Virus record (IMG/VR): IMGVR_UViG_3300042387_002391
Source: a virus
Reading direction: 5' to 3' (one strand)
Length of the DNA: 64,000 nt
Part shown: positions 35,606-61,119 of the stretch, in pieces
How positions within the stretch are numbered: the stretch's first letter is position 1
Layout of the letters: each line of letters starts with the position of its first letter
Program-made: the position numbers and the translations under genes
Notes under the pieces: generated by a model
What the model saw: the letters and a program-made list of their open reading frames with translations, nothing else
What the model was told of the DNA's origin: nothing
Database searches by the model: none

Positions 35606-36121
35606 TCATTCTAAAATATGTCCTCTAAATGTGTATTTTATTTCTGGAGTTCCAAACAACGGTCTTTTTGGGATTATAGTGTACATCCCATTATCAGCAG
35701 TCCCGACCATATGAGCTTTAATAGAGACAACAATCATATACAGTAGATATTTTTTATCTTTTAAAAAGTCTTTCATTTCTTGCAATGAATTAAAAATAAT
35801 AAATGTGGCAGCTTCTACTTTAGTTTTATATGTAAAGACAGGTGCTGTGATATAACCCGAAGCATTGTTAATAATTTCACAATCAAAATTATAATGATAA
35901 TTGCTTTGATTGCAAAGATCTTCAACCCTGTCTGGATTAGGTCCAGTTCCCTTTGTGTTTTTGTTTTCAATATCAATCTCTTTTATGATCTGTAACCATT
36001 CAGTTGCATCTGTTATGCAATTCAAATCGTTCTTATCAACCTCATCTTGAACCATGCTAGATTCAATTTCTTCTAGTTCTTTTGTTACTATACCTGTTAG
36101 TGTTTCTATTTCCGTATTCAT
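35606..36121 (-). CDS. Hypothetical protein
   Basis: 171 aa ORF. Confidence 0.6.
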   Translation of the reverse strand: MNTEIETLTGIVTKELEEIESSMVQDEVDKNDLNCITDATEWLQIIKEIDIENKNTKGTGPNPDRVEDLCNQSNYHYNFDCEIINNASGYITAPVFTYKTKVEAATFIIFNSLQEMKDFLKDKKYLLYMIVVSIKAHMVGTADNGMYTIIPKRPLFGTPEIKYTFRGHILE

Positions 36122-36394
36122 TTGTTCATTTTTTTAATTGTGCTATTTCTTCTTTGAGTTTTTTGTTCTCAAGAATAAGATCTGTAATGACATCATGTTG
36201 AGCTATAACAACGGGATTTTTAGTATGTTTTTTTAGCACACCTCTTTTCACATAGAAATCCAAAGTTTCTTCTGAATATTCATTAATCAAATGCCCTTTG
36301 TCTTTAAACTTTTTCATCTCTTGCAAATAGAATGTTTCGTTTTCATGATTATAAACAAACAATTCTCCATCATCAATTCTTTCGTAAAATATAT

Positions 36395-36718
36395 TCATTT
36401 AGAATAAAAAATAATTAAAATTAAAATAAAAACAATCGCAACAGACAGAATAATTGAAGTATCGATTAAATGTCTCAGAAATTTATTAGTAGCTTTTTTA
36501 AATTCTTGTAGCTCTTTTTGTAGTTTTTCTATTCGTTCCTCTGCAATTGCTTTGTTTCCGTATATTTCAGCCGAAATATAATGTAGTTCAGACTGCAATG
36601 CCTTCACACATACATCAGCATCTTCCTTCAATTTGAAAACTGTTTCTTTATTTGTGTGTATTTCAGCTTGCATTACATTTAGATCTTTGCTTGTATCGTT
36701 TGCTAATAATTGCTTATA
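36395..36718 (-). pseudogene. 3' part of the gene interrupted by the TnpB element (C-terminal TM helix)
   Basis: YKQLLANDTSKDLNVMQAEIH... joins in frame to 38274-38371 at TATAA. Confidence 0.55.
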
Positions 36719-36734
36719 ACATATAAAAATATAC

Positions 36735-38099
36735 CTAATGTATAATTTTAGTCAAGCTTTTTTCGTTTGGAGGGATTACTTGCTCCTCCATGATCACTTC
36801 GTTTTCAGTCCAGTAAAATCCTGTCCTGTTAATTTGTTGATCAAACACCCATAACGGGACCTCACAGAGGCAGAGTCTTAGATTGGCAGCAGCATTCATG
36901 TCTGCATCGGCTGTGTGACCACAGCTCCTACAGAGGAATGTCTTTCCTTTTCTATTCTTCTTGTTAACATAACCGCAACTACTACATCTCTGAGAACGAA
37001 ACTTATTAGGAACTTCAGTGAATGTAAAACCTTCACTTTCACTGAGTCTTTCTAGCTTCTCTTTTATCAGAGTGTATTTCCATCTCTTCAAATAATTTGA
37101 AGTATTCTTTCCTTTTCTTATTTGAAAAATCTTTTCTAGTCTTACTTCCTTTACGTTGTTAAAAGTAAGTTCATTTAAGCACCAGTTAACATAGTTCTTT
37201 CGTTCAGCTTGTGCTCTCTTATACCCTTTAGAATCTGGCTTTCTTCTACTGAGCGTCTTCTGAATGTCCGTTAAGTCTTTTCCGTGCTTGTTCTTTTTGG
37301 TGAATTGACCATCAGACATTGAAAGGCAAGTCGTGACGCCTTGATCACATCCGACTACTTCTCCTTCTGTTTTAACGGAGCATTCAATTTCCCATATCAA
37401 ATCCGCTTCCTTGTTGCTCAGAAGAGCTATTGCACTAATCTTTCTCTTGGCACCTTTCTTTAAAAGCTTCTTTGAGTGCTTATGATAATTTAAAGGAACT
37501 GTTAGAGTTCCATGATCTCCTGCTAAAGAAAGTCTTATGAACTCATCAAAAGAGAAGCTCTTGTTGTTTTTGTTCTGTTTAAAAACCTTTACTACGTCTG
37601 GTCTTGAAATTGTTATTTTAAAATCTTTAGGAAGAGAAGGCTTGACTAAGGAGTTCTTATTAACTTTGCTTTGCAGGATCTTTATGCTCTGTTGCTCTTT
37701 GGAAGAAGCTTCTCCTCTACTTAGTTTCTTTTGCAGCTTCTTTAGTTGATACACTCTTTTAGAGTGCTTTGTTGTAGCTCCTTTCAAGATTCCGAGAGCC
37801 TGAAGACCTGCCGTTTGTCTCAGCATTCCTCCTAAAGAGGTTTGAAATGTTTCTAAAAAAGTGCTGTCGAAAAACTTTGGTGCCTCTAAAGAGCCTTTAG
37901 AAGGATAATAATCAGCATATCCTCGATCCCAAACATGATCTATCAATTTAGAAACCAAATTTTTGTATTCAGAAATAAAGAGGTTCAGAGAGTCTTGTTT
38001 TCCTTTGTTTGGAAAGATCTTATGACGAGAAGTTCTATAAGAGACCTTGGTCTTCTGATCTAGCTCTTTTTCAGAGTTTATTTCTAAAATGTATTCCAT
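36735..38099 (-). CDS. tnpB: TnpB-family RNA-guided nuclease
   Basis: RuvC triad VVGCDQG, VRLEKI, ADADMNAAANL; zinc ribbon SQRCSSCG...CRSCG. Confidence 0.92.
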   Translation of the reverse strand: MEYILEINSEKELDQKTKVSYRTSRHKIFPNKGKQDSLNLFISEYKNLVSKLIDHVWDRGYADYYPSKGSLEAPKFFDSTFLETFQTSLGGMLRQTAGLQALGILKGATTKHSKRVYQLKKLQKKLSRGEASSKEQQSIKILQSKVNKNSLVKPSLPKDFKITISRPDVVKVFKQNKNNKSFSFDEFIRLSLAGDHGTLTVPLNYHKHSKKLLKKGAKRKISAIALLSNKEADLIWEIECSVKTEGEVVGCDQGVTTCLSMSDGQFTKKNKHGKDLTDIQKTLSRRKPDSKGYKRAQAERKNYVNWCLNELTFNNVKEVRLEKIFQIRKGKNTSNYLKRWKYTLIKEKLERLSESEGFTFTEVPNKFRSQRCSSCGYVNKKNRKGKTFLCRSCGHTADADMNAAANLRLCLCEVPLWVFDQQINRTGFYWTENEVIMEEQVIPPNEKSLTKIIH

Positions 38100-38109
38100 A
38101 AGTAATTTT

Positions 38110-38178
38110 TAGAGAGGACAGCTAGGTTTTATTCCAGCTTAGTTTCTTTAAAGTTGACGCTTTAAAGATCACTCTCTA
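38110..38178 (-). ncRNA. Predicted three-way-junction structure in the tnpB 5' leader
   Basis: P1 TAGAGAG/CTCTCTA, P2 TCTTTAAAG/CTTTAAAGA, imperfect P3 ACTAAGCTGG/CCTAGCTGT. Confidence 0.5.
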
Positions 38179-38179
38179 T

Positions 38180-38209
38180 ATTTTACTTATCTAAAATGAT
38201 CAAATTTTT
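38180..38209 (-). promoter_or_regulatory. Late promoter upstream of tnpB, 28/30 identical to the tail-tube promoter
   Basis: GATAAGTA core; matches 56993-57022. Confidence 0.7.
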
Positions 38210-38273
38210 CTTCTGTTTACAGAAAATATTTTTGCACTAAGATATTGTTACAGGACTTTAATATAATGAACTA

Positions 38274-38371
38274 TTATACCACATATATTCAAAATGATGA
38301 AAGTTAAACTTTCTGAGAGTTTCTTGAAGCTTCTCCGCTCTTTTAAAGTATTTTATTGTATTAGCATTCAT
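38274..38371 (-). pseudogene. 5' part of the gene interrupted by the TnpB element
   Basis: MNANTIKYFKRAEKLQETLRKFNFHHFEYMWY, then a stop inside the element. Confidence 0.55.
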
Positions 38372-38381
38372 ATTTAAAGTT

Positions 38382-38849
38382 TTAAGACATTCTGCTATAA
38401 GTTTTAATGTCTACTGCATTGTTTTTATATTCGTAGCAATGTTGATAACCAAAAGCTCCATTATAAATTCTTTTTATCTTACCATCATCATATTTTTCCA
38501 CTTGCAAAATTGTAAATGTTTTAAAAGCATCATCCCAAGAAACTTTTTGCTTAATAAACATCCCAATACTTTTAAACATAGTATGCCCAAATCTAATAAT
38601 TAAAGCATCATCAACATCGATTTTATAAAAATTTAATAGCCTACCATCTTGAGAATAAAGTGTTTTATTAGGCCATCCCAACGCATGATCTAAATTGTTA
38701 TAAATTTCATACAAATCATCTTTTATGACATCAAGGAAGTTTTTATTATCCAATTTTGATTTATCGATAAGAATTTTTTGTCCTTCATTATATTCATCAT
38801 AAGATAAAAACCAACAATTTTTAGTATCAATTTTATCTATGTTTCTCAT
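38382..38849 (-). CDS. Hypothetical protein
   Basis: 155 aa ORF. Confidence 0.6.
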   Translation of the reverse strand: MRNIDKIDTKNCWFLSYDEYNEGQKILIDKSKLDNKNFLDVIKDDLYEIYNNLDHALGWPNKTLYSQDGRLLNFYKIDVDDALIIRFGHTMFKSIGMFIKQKVSWDDAFKTFTILQVEKYDDGKIKRIYNGAFGYQHCYEYKNNAVDIKTYSRMS

Positions 38850-39181
38850 ACTTTTTCTTCAAACTCATATTCTTTTGTTTCTAACCTGTCCTCCAACCAA
38901 GCCTTCAATGCCCAATGATAATATGTGTAATTTGGATCTCCTTCATAATGAAAGAAAGCATGACCAAGATCAAAAATTACTTCTCTATAAATTTTTTCTT
39001 TCAATCTTTTTAAATGTTTACAAGTAAAACTTCTTAAACTAATTGAAGACTCCATGCCAAAGTCCCAAACAAAATGCACTGCTCCCGTTACTCTGTCGAC
39101 ATAATAAACATCAAAGTAGATAGGTTCTTTGCAAGTGAAATGACCTAGTTCTTGAAATGTTTCTGGAAGATAGAGTTTCAT
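38846..39181 (-). CDS. Hypothetical protein, near-identical to 23793-24122
   Basis: MKLYLPETFQELGHFTCKEP... Confidence 0.8.
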   Translation of the reverse strand: MKLYLPETFQELGHFTCKEPIYFDVYYVDRVTGAVHFVWDFGMESSISLRSFTCKHLKRLKEKIYREVIFDLGHAFFHYEGDPNYTYYHWALKAWLEDRLETKEYEFEEKV

Positions 39182-56424: not shown

Positions 56425-56991
56425 TTAACGAGTACGACGACGAGTATTTGCGACCGTAATAGGTCTGCGAATGTTTGTTTTGCGCCAGAATTGATAAGCA
56501 AGAGTTACAGGAACTGTTACAATCGTTCCAGAATCAGCAACGCTATAAGCAGTATCAGCAACGGACACGATATAAGCACCATACATAGTGTACTCGCTGA
56601 TTGTTGTCATGTCTTTGTCAAATAATTGCATGATCAATACAGAAGAATCAGAAGGAGTGTTGTAGTCGCCTGTCGAAGTATTATCATTGAATGTCTGGAA
56701 GGTATTTTGTTCAAGAACATTGCGGATGTCATAGCGCTGATCACAGCGGAATGTTACAGAATATCCAGTAGAGCCAGGATAAGTGGCTGTGCCAGGAATG
56801 TTGAACGGAAGGCCCATATAAGGAACTGTTTGGTTTGTGATGGATCTGCCAGGCAATGAAGCAGTTTCAACATAAACAAGATCGTCTTCTGTAAATCCAG
56901 TATTTCCGAAACGGACTAGACGAAATTGAAATTGACGAGCGAAGTCGCGTGTTTGAGCTACTCTGTAGAATGATGTAATGTTTTGAGCCAT
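56425..56991 (-). CDS. gp19: Tail tube protein
   Basis: FARQFQF, ASLPG, YMG....PG, VTLAYQFW; follows the tail sheath gene. Confidence 0.85.
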   Translation of the reverse strand: MAQNITSFYRVAQTRDFARQFQFRLVRFGNTGFTEDDLVYVETASLPGRSITNQTVPYMGLPFNIPGTATYPGSTGYSVTFRCDQRYDIRNVLEQNTFQTFNDNTSTGDYNTPSDSSVLIMQLFDKDMTTISEYTMYGAYIVSVADTAYSVADSGTIVTVPVTLAYQFWRKTNIRRPITVANTRRRTR

Positions 56992-56996
56992 GATTT

Positions 56997-57004
56997 TACT
57001 TATC
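56997..57004 (-). promoter_or_regulatory. T4-like late promoter
   Basis: GATAAGTA-N5-ATG; related motif at 4063, 7013, 48988, 53429, 56400 and 61126. Confidence 0.7.
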
Positions 57005-57125
57005 TAAAATGGTTAAATTTTTAAGGTTTGAAAGGTAGTATTTCCGAATTTATTTATCTGACGTTCGATAATTTTTGTATCAAATAAATGGTTGAACGTA
57101 TTTAAAATTAAATTAATTAATTCTA

Positions 57126-58988
57126 ATGAATAATATGAATTTAGATATAGAACTAGTAAAGCAACTAAGAACAAAGCATCCAAAACATTACTGCAAAATT
57201 ATTAAAAACCATTATCAAGAAATTTATAAAGCAATTGAAGATTTTGCACAGAATGTGTATTGCGATTACCAAATGAATTTTCCACAAAAAATATATCACT
57301 GGATTCACCAGCTTCACAAAATTCCACTTTGTCCGATTAAGAATGTACTTTTAAAATTTTATAATCATAAGTTTGAATACAGAAAGTTTAGCGAAAGAGG
57401 ATTGTTCACAGAAGAGTTTGCAAAAAATAGAATGAAGGGAAGAACAAAATTTCCTAATGCCAAAGAAAGAATGGGTGATATTGATGCAAATTTTCGATAC
57501 GAAGAAAATTATAAGGAACAAGCTTTTAAGCAAGTCAGCAAAATGTTTGACGAAATACAAAACATTGGGGGAGTTTGTACCGCAATTAAAACCAAAAAGA
57601 ATGCTAAACTGTATTCTTTTGTTAAAAATTTATATCCAACAGCAGAAACGTTTTCAGAGTGTTTGTTTTTGCTTTTAAACAACATGTCTGAACCACCTTT
57701 GTGTCCATTTTCCAAGCTTCCTTTGCCTTTTGTAAATTTTAAGCAAGGTTATAAAGACACTCACCCTGCTGCTGTTTGCGATTTAAAGAGACACAAAAGG
57801 CAAGAAAAGCTTCAAAATCTCGAAATTTTGTCTAAAGAAGAAACAATTGTACAACTTCAAATGATGATAGACGAGCTCAGAAGAAACAATATTTCGATCA
57901 ATAATTTGAAGCAGTCTGCGGTTAAAAGATGTCCTAGTTTAGCAATATCGATCGAACAGCACACAAAAACATATACAACTCTTACCAAAAAATGGTCAGA
58001 AAGAGCTTATTTGCTTTTGCATGAAGGCGAATCGAGAGATTTCTCGAAATGCAGATTTTCTTCTTTTGATGAAGGCTACTATGACACATTCGTTAACCCT
58101 AACAGTTCGATTGGAGAAGAAAATCTTGCGAGTTGGATCGAAAGTCTGAGTGTCAGCAAAATAAGGAGGCACGAAAGGCTTTTAAACGGGATGGAGGCAG
58201 ACATCTATGCCGAGAATGTTAACTTAGCGATAGAATATCACGGCGAATATTATCATAATTTTGAATTTAGAGGCACAGACTATCACAAGCGAAAAGCAGA
58301 TGCTGCTTTAACCAAAAATATAAATTTGCTTCAAATTTTTGAAAGCGAATGGTATAATAAGCAAGAAATAGTAAAGTCTATTATTAAATCTGAACTGGGA
58401 ATATTCTCTTTCAAAGTTGATGCAGAATCGTGCTTAGTTAAGCAACTTGACTCTAAAACAAAAAATGAATTTTTAGTAAAAAACCATATTCAGGGAATCG
58501 ACCGTTCGATTATTGCTTTTGGCCTTTATTTCGATGACGAATTAGTCTCTTGTATGACATTCGGAAGAGGATGTAAACAAAAGGACAATCGAATTGAATT
58601 AGTTAAATTTTGCAATAAACTAGACACTGCAGTAATTGGAGGAGCAAGTAAACTGATAAATGCATTCGCAAAGCAGTTTAAGCCTGCAAAAATTTTTACA
58701 TTTTCAGACAGAAGATTTGCAAATAGTAGTAATTTTTACGAAGATTTGGGTTTTAAAAAATGTAACCAAACAATACCGAATTATTTTTACTTCAAATCTA
58801 GCATGCCTCAATACATGAAGTTAATCCACCATTGCAATTTCGCGAAACATTTGCTGCCTCGTAAATTAAAACAGTATGACGCAAATCAAACAGAGTATGA
58901 AAATATGAAGCAGAACGGTTACTTTAAAATTTATGATGCAGGAAGCTTCAGATATGAACTAACTTTTAAACAACCTACCAATGTTTAG
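57126..58988 (+). CDS. Hef-like free-standing homing endonuclease
   Basis: EADIY...AIEYHGEYYH...LLQIFESEW nuclease core; NHIQG, MTFG, GGASKL, SDRRF, YDAG C-terminal domain. Confidence 0.8.
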   Translation: MNNMNLDIELVKQLRTKHPKHYCKIIKNHYQEIYKAIEDFAQNVYCDYQMNFPQKIYHWIHQLHKIPLCPIKNVLLKFYNHKFEYRKFSERGLFTEEFAKNRMKGRTKFPNAKERMGDIDANFRYEENYKEQAFKQVSKMFDEIQNIGGVCTAIKTKKNAKLYSFVKNLYPTAETFSECLFLLLNNMSEPPLCPFSKLPLPFVNFKQGYKDTHPAAVCDLKRHKRQEKLQNLEILSKEETIVQLQMMIDELRRNNISINNLKQSAVKRCPSLAISIEQHTKTYTTLTKKWSERAYLLLHEGESRDFSKCRFSSFDEGYYDTFVNPNSSIGEENLASWIESLSVSKIRRHERLLNGMEADIYAENVNLAIEYHGEYYHNFEFRGTDYHKRKADAALTKNINLLQIFESEWYNKQEIVKSIIKSELGIFSFKVDAESCLVKQLDSKTKNEFLVKNHIQGIDRSIIAFGLYFDDELVSCMTFGRGCKQKDNRIELVKFCNKLDTAVIGGASKLINAFAKQFKPAKIFTFSDRRFANSSNFYEDLGFKKCNQTIPNYFYFKSSMPQYMKLIHHCNFAKHLLPRKLKQYDANQTEYENMKQNGYFKIYDAGSFRYELTFKQPTNV

Positions 58989-59016: not shown

Positions 59017-61119
59017 TTAAATAATTTCTTGGAAGTTTTGGCTCGTGCGGGTTGCAATAAAGTCAATCAAAATAAATTCCGAACTCCGTACAGCCTTCAA
59101 ATAAATGCTAACCAAAAGTTCGTTATTATCGATGACATCAGGTGTGTTAATTCTTTCGTCGCAGACAATTTCAAAGTCAAAAAGTCCTTCTGTGTTCTTT
59201 GCAAACTCAAAAATTGGAGTAATAACACTCTTCAGACGAGTCCTTGTAAATTCGGTATTTGGTTCAAACACAAAATACTTCAAGGTTCTTTGAGTTGCTC
59301 TTTCGAGAGTTAGGAACAATCTGCGAACATTGATGCGATCAAAAGCAGTTGGTTTTGTTTGAAGGGTTTTTTGACCCATTACAGCAAATCCGTCTCCACT
59401 AAAGAACACAACAGGGTTTACAGAAATTTCATAAAGTCTGTCGCGTTGTTTTTGATTTGGATTGAAAGCAATATCGAGAGCATTGAAAGTGCCTCTGTTG
59501 AGACCTGCTGGAGCAAACCATGGTTGAGAGACCGCATCATTGCGAGCAAATGTTGCAGCAGCATAACCTGAAAACGGTACCCACATTCTGCGACCTGTAA
59601 AGATATCAGAAACTTTGACCCAGTTACCATACATTGCAGCATAGTTGCTTTCAGAGCTAGCAATCTCTTTGAGGGGATTGTAAATGTCTTGGGTAAATGT
59701 TTTTCCTTCAGAATCAATTACTTTTGAGTCTCTGCCCAATACAAAAATAGGACGAAGAGGATCGATAATTGCCATGCAATCTTTGCGAGTATTTTGAGCA
59801 AAGTTGACAAGTGTGTCAGAAACTGCGCGGAAGTCATCAGTCAAGGCAGAAACATCGCTGACGAATGTTTCATCATTGAAGGAGCTAATTCCGAGCGTAT
59901 TTGTCATTGCAAATACTGTAGAAAGACCGGCATCAACAATAACATCAACAATAGTGTTTTCAATGCTTTCGAGAGGACGAAGAGCTTTGTCAAGCTTTCC
60001 TGGAACGCTTCCGATAACTTTCGAAACGTCTTGTGAGCGGCTGTCGGGAGTAAAGACGCCAAGAGGGAAGAGAGCTTTGGCTCCGTCAGTAACAGTAACG
60101 CGAGAGGTCGGAAGAGTGGAGTTAACAGCCCATTGATAGCTCTTAGAGATTGCTGGGTTGATATACATCTTAATTGTCGGAGAGGCATCGTTGATATTAT
60201 CTCCAATGAATGCGTTTGAAAGAATGCCACCAGTTGGGCTTACTTGGCGTCTGTTATAATCAAATGAGCCGAGGTACTTTTCAGTTGTTGCGAGGGTTAA
60301 CATTGTTGCGTCTGAAGTAGAACGACGAACTTTATAAACACCGAGGGAAAGATGATCTTGATATTCATCAGTTTCGAAACCGATGAAGCCAACCTTTTCG
60401 AGAGATTCAGAAATGCTATACAAGCCTCTGTTGCTGTCTGCAAGAGTTGCTGAAAGAGCAAAGTCGATGCGATCTGTCGTAATCGAACCAAATGTATCAG
60501 AAGCAGTAAGAGTCGTTAGAGCAAGAACCGATTCGAAGTTTGGTGAGCTGGTGGAAACCGCAAGGTTGTCTGCAAAGCCAACATAGTAGCCTTCTGCATA
60601 TTCATTGACAACTGTTTGGAGGTCATTAAGAATGAAGAAGCCGGCGTTAATTTCGACATCACCTGTAAGTTTAGCAGAAAGAACGGAAGAACCGGTGCCA
60701 ACCCAATCAAAGTTGCCTTCAACGAGCTTTGTGTATTGCTCTTGGCTCATGCTTGCCGCAATTGGCGCACCAATCTCCCATTCGCCAGTTGCTGAAGTCA
60801 TTGGATAGAATAGAGCTCCAAAAGAATTGGAATAAGCAGAACCAGTGTTTGCTCCGTATGGTAAACGAACAGTGTTCAGAACGCCAGGAGAATTGAGAAC
60901 TTCTTTACAGCTGTAGTAAAAGTACATTTCAGCTGGTGTCGAAGGAATGCCGTAAATTGATTCAAATTCGCTTGTTGAAGTAATCAACAAAGGCTCGCTG
61001 ACAGGACCTTGGGGAGCAAAGCCAGGAACAACGATTGTCGTGCCTGCTTGAATTTGTGTACGAAGTGAAAGATCTTTTTCAGTAATCTGAACGCCGGGTG
61101 AGTTAATGATTCTTGCCAT
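59017..61119 (-). CDS. gp18: Tail sheath protein
   Basis: SPGVQITEKDLS start; PWFAPAGLNRG, RDRLY, GQKTL, AFDRINVRRLF, FEPN. Confidence 0.95.
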   Translation of the reverse strand: MARIINSPGVQITEKDLSLRTQIQAGTTIVVPGFAPQGPVSEPLLITSTSEFESIYGIPSTPAEMYFYYSCKEVLNSPGVLNTVRLPYGANTGSAYSNSFGALFYPMTSATGEWEIGAPIAASMSQEQYTKLVEGNFDWVGTGSSVLSAKLTGDVEINAGFFILNDLQTVVNEYAEGYYVGFADNLAVSTSSPNFESVLALTTLTASDTFGSITTDRIDFALSATLADSNRGLYSISESLEKVGFIGFETDEYQDHLSLGVYKVRRSTSDATMLTLATTEKYLGSFDYNRRQVSPTGGILSNAFIGDNINDASPTIKMYINPAISKSYQWAVNSTLPTSRVTVTDGAKALFPLGVFTPDSRSQDVSKVIGSVPGKLDKALRPLESIENTIVDVIVDAGLSTVFAMTNTLGISSFNDETFVSDVSALTDDFRAVSDTLVNFAQNTRKDCMAIIDPLRPIFVLGRDSKVIDSEGKTFTQDIYNPLKEIASSESNYAAMYGNWVKVSDIFTGRRMWVPFSGYAAATFARNDAVSQPWFAPAGLNRGTFNALDIAFNPNQKQRDRLYEISVNPVVFFSGDGFAVMGQKTLQTKPTAFDRINVRRLFLTLERATQRTLKYFVFEPNTEFTRTRLKSVITPIFEFAKNTEGLFDFEIVCDERINTPDVIDNNELLVSIYLKAVRSSEFILIDFIATRTSQNFQEII

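Follow-up and report, generated by a model that had tools for sequence, protein, structure and literature searches.

A tnpB gene in a 64-kb stretch of viral DNA (here called the window, at its full length) is preceded by a copy of the late promoter of a tail gene, and at the position where a T4-type late transcript should start, a structured leader RNA begins, as the original prediction had proposed. We consider it somewhat probable that this tnpA-less IS607-family TnpB, with a copied resident tail promoter, a gated start codon and a conserved leader, is made late in infection. We infer the promoter, the late start, the late timing and the translational gating from folding and from examination and comparison of sequences. 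Cas12 descends from TnpB and, to our knowledge, the natural control of TnpB-type nucleases is barely known, with work so far dealing only with the 3′ guide RNA. On the reading that we favor, a TnpB element in a lytic phage and the protein-only homing endonucleases would have come by convergence to the same logic, in which a late promoter and a masked start are combined with expression at a time of abundant genomes. Since conservation of the leader exceeds that of the protein, the leader is a candidate for a new regulatory RNA, and it could be used experimentally to study TnpB dosage control.

A transposase-less IS607-family element in a T4-like phage

The phage carries T4-type sheath, tube and terminase genes, and its sheath is 27 to 41% identical to cyanophage and other T4-like sheaths; a nucleotide search of GenBank phages gave no match. 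We conclude, to judge from these sequences, that the host of the element is a novel T4-like myovirus. The tnpB gene (36735..38099, minus strand) encodes a protein of 454 amino acids with intact RuvC and zinc-ribbon motifs. The product has the Pfam Cas12f1-like TNB domain (PF07282; 8e-14), matches PHROG transposase families and aligns to the RuvC-zinc-finger region of solved Cas12f and TnpB structures. Among 24 homologues, the GxDxG, E322, ADAD and CxxC...CxxC motifs are invariant, as are the triad (D252, E322 and D398/D400) and the zinc ribbon (C372/C375/C390/C393).

We delimited the element by DNA homology among its copies and by comparison with an element-free relative, L118. It occupies 36706..38273 on the minus strand (~1.57 kb), in the order left end, promoter, leader, tnpB, guide-RNA region and right end. 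Homology to 12 other copies, which have unrelated flanks, ends at 36706 and near 38253-38273. With the IMG/VR contig L001, whose TnpB is 87% identical, DNA similarity spans 38253 to 36706 of the window and then stops. Conservation among 13 copies ends sharply at the right-end terminus, AAGCAATTAT (36706..36715, minus strand), and the shared right-end sequence ...TTTTATATGTTAAAAGCAATTAT terminates 12 further copies, all of them in unrelated flanks. The ends are thus common to copies in unrelated flanks; terminal inverted repeats are absent, and the window copy has a degenerate left end. L118 matches the window at 38371-38273 and at 36711-36398, and the last 6 nt of AAGCAATTAT are also present in this uninterrupted target, where homology starts at 36711. 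The two matches correspond to two different genes that lie 646 nt apart in L118. Together, the matches and the gap between them place the element at ~36706-38273, with the 30-nt promoter copy described below inside its left end. The comparison also indicates that the insertion is associated with loss of a 646-nt segment present in L118.

The sequences flanking the element (36398-36715 and 38263-38371, minus strand; counterpart in L118, 2371-3435) are remnants of two genes, namely, the first 33 codons of a 133-amino-acid gene and the last 105 codons of a 144-amino-acid membrane-protein gene. An in-frame open reading frame (ORF) of 138 amino acids, considered as a gene restored by removal of the element, was rejected; it is a fusion of the two gene remnants, which in L118 are separated by the 646 nt. 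In a short contig, L117, the same right flank (97% identical) is preceded at 215-240 by AAAGCAATTAT, the last 11 nt of the right end of the element; the element itself is absent, and unrelated coding sequence lies upstream. This junction may have been left by excision or recombination, or it may be an artifact of chimeric assembly. Wherever the flank of a copy could be read (L001, L109, L112, L113, L114, L115, L004 and L005), CTAT lies 2 to 5 nt outside the conserved left end, and the window has GTAT at 38276-38279 in its place. CTAT is, from its position, a candidate target-adjacent motif or target-site preference.

Members of the IS607 family combine a serine-recombinase TnpA with a TnpB that has a right-end guide RNA (ISFba1, PMC11061315; transposition, PMC6188088). 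We found a Resolvase-domain tnpA gene in 32 of the 116 loci examined. In L114 and L115 (TnpB 74% identical to that of the window) and in L004 and L005 (64%), this gene encodes 191 to 192 amino acids and lies directly upstream of tnpB, overlapping it. No tnpA-like ORF is present anywhere in the 64-kb window. Since its close TnpB relatives carry tnpA and it does not, the window copy is an IS607-family derivative that lost tnpA rather than an autonomous member. It shares with the family the RuvC and zinc-ribbon motifs of its TnpB, the Resolvase-type tnpA directly upstream of and overlapping tnpB in close relatives, the lack of terminal inverted repeats, the sharply conserved right end and the structured RNA region at the 3′ end. 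It differs in having no tnpA, a decayed left end, a larger TnpB (454 versus ~390 amino acids) and, upstream of tnpB, a structured 5′ leader behind a phage late promoter, whereas full-length relatives have no such leader.

The terminal part of the left end (38210..38273, minus strand) contains degenerate TATAAAAA(A)TAT repeats, which are the presumed TnpA-binding sites of the family. They are decayed here: the window matches its sister copies at 36 to 39 of 64 positions, whereas the sisters match one another at 55 to 58, and the window left end also has a 6-nt deletion. The decay of the repeats suggests that the window copy is no longer mobilizable.

The guide RNA of characterized IS607 TnpBs lies at the right end, 3′ of tnpB, and this 3′ RNA alone suffices (PMC11061315). 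A conserved hairpin inside the 3′ end of the window tnpB (36768..36790, minus strand) is the presumed guide (omega) RNA scaffold; it shows two compensatory pairs (UA to CG and GC to AU) across 13 copies. The flank directly 3′ of the right end (36686..36705, minus strand), which differs in sequence in every copy, is the presumed guide segment, assigned by position only, by analogy with IS607 and IS605 TnpB (PMC11061315). A search of 36000-39000 against Rfam 15 did not match RAGATH-18. By sequence and analogy, the right-end hairpin region is consistent with a guide-RNA scaffold at the 3′ location typical of such RNAs.

A probable copy of the tail-tube late promoter upstream of tnpB

The T4 late promoter is TATAAATA at -13 to -6; transcription from it starts ~6 nt further on and depends on the late sigma factor of the phage (gp55/gp33). 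Upstream of tnpB, we infer a T4-type late promoter core from GATAAGTA (38184..38191, minus strand), an 8-nt A/T-rich sequence of the form NATAAATA that would lie at about -13 to -6 and has no -35 element; the same class of motif precedes genes in the window and in related phages. The original prediction held that other window genes have their ATG where the leader begins relative to the core. Indeed, [G/A]ATAA[A/G]TA is found exactly 5 to 6 nt before the ATG of seven other window genes, which include those for the tail sheath, the tail tube and other minus-strand structural-region proteins; the cores are GATAAATA (three genes), GATAAGTA (two) and AATAAATA (two). These seven are among 22 NATAA[A/G]TA sites in the window, i.e., 7 of 22 sit 5 to 6 nt before an ORF-opening ATG. 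The 8-nt core alone is not enriched in the window (4 occurrences, with 2.2 expected), and the weight of the argument therefore rests on the fixed spacing to the ATG and on the 30-nt match described below. In 45 of 54 distinct related phage contigs, the motif, mostly AATAAATA, lies 5 to 11 nt before the tube ATG, with varying neighboring sequence, and in the related phage L116, TCATTTTAGATAAGTAAAATAT directly precedes the sheath ATG. With the T4 late promoter at -13 to -6, a 5-nt spacing would place +1 at the A of the ATG, giving leaderless late mRNAs; the same spacing at tnpB would place +1 at the first base of helix P1 of the leader. These comparisons support the use of NATAA(A/G)TA as a late promoter, at a spacing that gives leaderless mRNAs, by a large group of uncultured freshwater T4-like phages.

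The core upstream of tnpB is part of a 30-mer, AAAAATTTGATCATTTTAGATAAGTAAAAT (38180..38209, minus strand), that is a copy of the resident tail-gene late promoter region. Its twin is the region upstream of the tail-tube gene (56993..57022, minus strand; core at 56997-57004). The tube gene (PHROG tail tube; 56425-56991, with its ATG at 56991) is preceded by AAAAATTTAACCATTTTAGATAAGTAAAAT-C-ATG. The claimed match was confirmed at 28 of 30 positions, of which 19 are contiguous (CATTTTAGATAAGTAAAAT). With up to three mismatches allowed, the 30-mer occurs at just these two sites in the 64 kb, and no match was found in 100 shuffles; other late promoters of the window share only the core with it. On the minus strand, the order upstream of tnpB is the 30-mer (38209-38180), an 80-nt leader and the ATG. 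The region between the tube gene and a gene for an HNH endonuclease has a second GATAAATA core at 57051-57058 (minus strand), which precedes that of the tube promoter by 54 nt.

We compared the 30-mer with the sequences at the same position in five sister tnpA-less copies, which share GATTTTTAAGTCATTTTGATTAAGTAAAAT. The sisters match one another at 28 to 29 of 30 positions, whereas the window matches them at only 19 to 20 and its own tube promoter at 28. The differences fall within 20 nt of the 30-mer, where the window matches the sisters at 9 to 10 positions, the sisters match one another at 18 to 19 and the window matches the tube promoter at 18. A tree of the coding sequences places the window as sister to L109 (support 96/96) within an otherwise star-like set. 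Since the sisters agree with one another and not with the window, the window patch is derived, probably having been re-patched from a resident tail promoter; the clustering of ten changes in 20 nt, beside a leader that is ~97% identical, is better explained by recombination over a short tract than by point mutation. The patch thus most likely arose by short-tract recombination with a resident tail promoter, after the split from sister L109. A consideration against copying in the direction from tube to element is that the tube promoter of the window is itself non-ancestral. A 620-amino-acid HNH/homing-endonuclease gene (57126-58988, plus strand) lies on the opposite strand between the sheath (59017-61119) and tube (56425-56991) genes. 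In most of the 54 related phages, the tube gene directly follows the sheath gene and the late promoter overlaps the sheath stop codon. The non-ancestral state is deduced from this difference, i.e., from the HNH gene that splits sheath from tube here, unlike in most relatives.

Late-promoter-like sequences also precede the first ORF in relatives of the element. Full-length relatives have CCATTTAGATAAATAAAAATAT-ATG before tnpA, L114 and L115 have GATAAATA-N7-ATG before tnpA, and L084 has CAGATAAGTAATATAT-GTG before tnpB (GATAAGTA-N6-GTG). These cores indicate that the ancestor of the element family already had a late-promoter-like core immediately upstream of its first ORF. In the five sister copies, the corresponding sequence is GATTAAGTA, in which the canonical core is broken, and the leader is retained; the function of the leader therefore cannot depend wholly on the promoter.

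Two further observations concern related loci. Among ~25 IS607 loci (L004-L115), many tnpA genes have a -10-like hexamer or late-promoter-like octamer that ends 5 to 8 nt before the ATG, which suggests that leaderless tnpA mRNAs are common in this branch. In addition, a distant (35%) tnpA-less tnpB in L045 (~2340-2470) is preceded by AATAAGTA and AATAAATA motifs, then by a ~75-nt leader with a long hairpin and the ATG, and may have acquired this design independently.

The tnpB leader RNA and a predicted start-codon helix

The leader (38110..38178, minus strand) is a predicted 69-nt three-way junction, identified by its fold and by its conservation in seven copies. As originally described, its start lies 5 nt past GATAAGTA (38191-38184), and 10 nt lie between its end and the ATG (38099). 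Helix P1 pairs 38178-38172 with 38116-38110 and is extended by 38170-38168 with 38119-38117; P2 pairs 38167-38160 with 38153-38146, leaving a loop at 38159-38154; and P3 pairs 38139-38134 with 38125-38120 (all minus strand). The RNA from 38180 to 38097 (minus strand) folds at -23 kcal/mol, compared with -10.0 ± 2.6 for shuffled sequences (z = -4.95), and none of 200 shuffles folded as well. A search of 36000-39000 against Rfam 15 gave no relevant match at an E value of ≤10. The prediction of an unrecognized leader RNA is thus borne out, in that no Rfam family was matched by a leader whose fold is thermodynamically strong and whose sequence is very conserved.

We next compared the leader among the seven copies. 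The coding sequences are 83 to 87% identical and third codon positions are 68 to 76% identical. Outside the P2 loop, the leader has 0 to 4 differences in 74 positions (0 to 5%); 0 to 6 of the 7 positions of the P2 loop differ, which indicates that the copies are old enough to have diverged. We conclude from this pattern that the rest of the leader, including the unpaired junction bases and the P3 loop, is evidently under strong constraint. No other part of the element, the guide-RNA region and the protein included, is conserved as strongly as the leader. The P2 loop (38154-38159) comprises 6 to 7 nt between two invariant CTTTAAAG arms, and its divergence exceeds that of third codon positions. 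It is hypervariable, and it cannot pair with the invariant AAUAAAA loop of P3. A covariation check of the four helices found none: they are near-invariant, with three single mismatches and two wobble changes among the seven copies. The test is uninformative because the stems never vary, and the fold accordingly rests on its energy and on the pattern of a variable loop and fixed stems.

A covariance model of the leader, run over 89 sources (456 kb), detected just the 7 known copies, and exact-pattern scans of viral contigs detected only the L001 contig. Full elements with tnpA have no such leader; it is confined to the clade that lost tnpA. Its absence from tnpA-bearing elements implies that it is not needed for transposition and is not a transposition site. 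Several possible origins and identities were considered and rejected. As a diverged duplicate of the right-end guide RNA, the leader gave an alignment score of 29.5 versus a shuffle mean of 31.3; by eye, both RNAs contain AGUGAUC-hairpin-AAAC...AAGCU. As a remnant of tnpA, it gave free local alignments no better than those of shuffles; the first 19 nt align at 16 of 19 positions with the tnpA start of L114, at a homologous position, which is a hint only. As a hammerhead or other small ribozyme, it had no Rfam match, and it lacks the core motifs of the hammerhead (CUGANGA and GAAA around a three-way junction); its junction strands (UGAU, AAACUA and GUC) do not contain CUGANGA.

In longer folds, the promoter core AUAAGUAA (38190-38183) pairs with UUACUUAU (38105-38098) to form a further helix, P0. 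Only read-through RNA from upstream contains the 5′ arm (38183..38190, minus strand). The 3′ arm (38098..38105, minus strand) covers -6 to +2 of the tnpB start codon and is invariant in the seven copies; TAAGTAA and TTACTTA are invariant in all copies. P0 is just 8 A/U-rich pairs in the window and 7 in the sister copies. The computed probability that -6 to +2 is unpaired is 0.00 to 0.15 when the core is in the RNA and 0.4 to 0.97 for 5′ ends at 38177-38179. Most genes of the phage have no Shine-Dalgarno sequence and start after A/U-rich stretches, and tnpB is likewise.

The homing endonuclease genes I-TevI, I-TevII, I-TevIII, segB and Aeh1 mobE have a late promoter within an inhibitory structure (reviewed in PMC2988022). 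P0, as modeled, is such a gate, i.e., a helix over the initiation region with its 5′ arm upstream of the putative late start. In both cases, a selfish nuclease gene of a T4-like phage has a late promoter in the 5′ arm of a helix covering the translation start, and only transcripts from the late promoter are predicted to be translatable (for the window, by computation only). The two cases differ in that the window nuclease is an RNA-guided TnpB and not a GIY-YIG or HNH enzyme, in that the start codon itself is paired, with no Shine-Dalgarno involvement, and in that what the window helix closes is not a plain hairpin but a conserved three-way junction of 69 nt. The predicted pairing of the promoter core with the start-codon region would be new here. 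The analogy with T4 homing endonucleases drawn in the original prediction is therefore apt, and stronger than claimed, since in the model the promoter core itself pairs with the start codon.

We propose that early and middle read-through RNA includes the core, so that P0 would close the junction and hide the AUG, and no TnpB would be made early. Late in infection, the phage late transcription machinery would start at ~38177-38179, the first base of P1. The resulting tnpB mRNA would have a compact 5′-terminal structure and its AUG in an open A/U-rich stretch, and TnpB would be made when replicating phage genomes are available for cutting and repair. The strict conservation of the junctions and of the P3 loop suggests a further role for the leader, such as binding of a protein or stabilization of the RNA.

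Gating would need only a simple hairpin, and it leaves the invariant unpaired junction and loop bases unaccounted for. More tentatively, and with limited confidence, we suggest that the junction could do more than time expression. It would be a functional RNA of a new kind, belonging to transposase-less TnpB elements that reside in phages; TnpB or a protein of the phage may bind it, or it may act as a sense/antisense pair. In this reading it replaced tnpA as the transposon became an RNA-guided homing cassette copying the strongest late promoter of its host. Two inverted late-promoter cores flank the junction, each exactly 5 nt from its base. A reading that makes the promoter gate secondary, with the three-way junction serving the TnpB system as an auxiliary RNA or as a site of protein binding (for example, an operator for TnpB self-limitation or a second RNA part of the complex), strikes us as rather unlikely. 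It would explain why unpaired bases of the junction and of the P3 loop vary as little as the stems, why conservation is greater in the leader than in the guide-RNA region or the protein and why the leader occurs only in the clade that lost tnpA; however, similarity to the right-end RNA of the element is not above that of shuffles, no Rfam family was matched, and characterized TnpBs need just the 3′ guide RNA (PMC11061315).

Antisense, portable-promoter and plus-strand alternatives to the proposed late gating

The complement of the 3′ arm of P0 reads CATAAGTA (38097-38104, plus strand). With a 5-nt spacing, this sequence could direct antisense transcription from 38110, at the opposite base of the junction. 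Such an RNA would be fully complementary to the leader and could repress tnpB, and the leader would be conserved as a sense/antisense pair. There are parallels in RNA-OUT of IS10 and art200 of IS200. CATAAGTA is invariant in all seven copies, including the five in which the sense core is broken; the plus strand folds nearly as well as the minus strand (-23.4 kcal/mol; z = -3.9), and one gene-linked CATAAATA-N6-ATG is found in L110. However, none of the seven gene-linked cores in the window starts with C, and P0 and the start-codon context already dictate CATAAGTA, whose presence thus requires no promoter role. We regard antisense control as unlikely.

A second alternative would dispense with any special wiring: the 30-mer would be a portable strong-promoter cassette shared by tail genes and mobile elements in this group of phages, and the leader would be conserved merely because the copies are young or have been homogenized by recombination. 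T4-type phages recombine heavily, the sheath gene of L116 is preceded by a 23-nt stretch of this sequence, and L114 and L115 carry a similar stretch before tnpA. Against this, the copies differ by 13 to 17% in the coding sequence and at most positions of the P2 loop, yet by 0 to 5% in the leader. Moreover, in the patch, the sister copies match one another and not the window, and the other late promoters of the window share only the core. We therefore find this explanation improbable and retain the reading in which a copied tail promoter and a gated start codon would time TnpB to late infection.

The original prediction also described a promoter on the plus strand, TTGACG-N17-TATATT, pointing away from tnpB. 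The site is present at 38154-38182 and matches 10 of 12 consensus positions, but a promoter role is not supported: the -35 element is the hypervariable P2 loop and is absent from five of the seven copies, only the window and L001 having it. The 2 kb around the site contains nine such sites, with 5.2 ± 2.6 expected. The more speculative claim, that a plus-strand RNA consisting of the structure followed by the 30-mer is a scaffold plus guide aiming TnpB at the tail-tube promoter, is contradicted by the location of the guide-RNA region at the right end and by the different 30-mer of the sister copies. Although the plus-strand order of structure and then 30-mer is real and a plus-strand start at 38110 is possible, we consider this highly improbable, since the named sigma-70-like promoter would start inside the 30-mer, downstream of the structure, and has its -35 in the variable loop; the conserved, covarying RNA with a sharp end beside a variable flank is at the right end, the site of IS607 TnpB guides (PMC11061315); the 30-mer of the sister copies differs and has no second match in their available flanks, which are short; and cutting its own tube promoter would harm the phage.

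A further sigma-70-like site, TTGACT-N16-TATATT (10 of 12 consensus positions), lies at the right end of the element (36728-36755, minus strand) and points outward to a truncated downstream ORF of 92 amino acids. Its -10-like stretch is retained in other copies.
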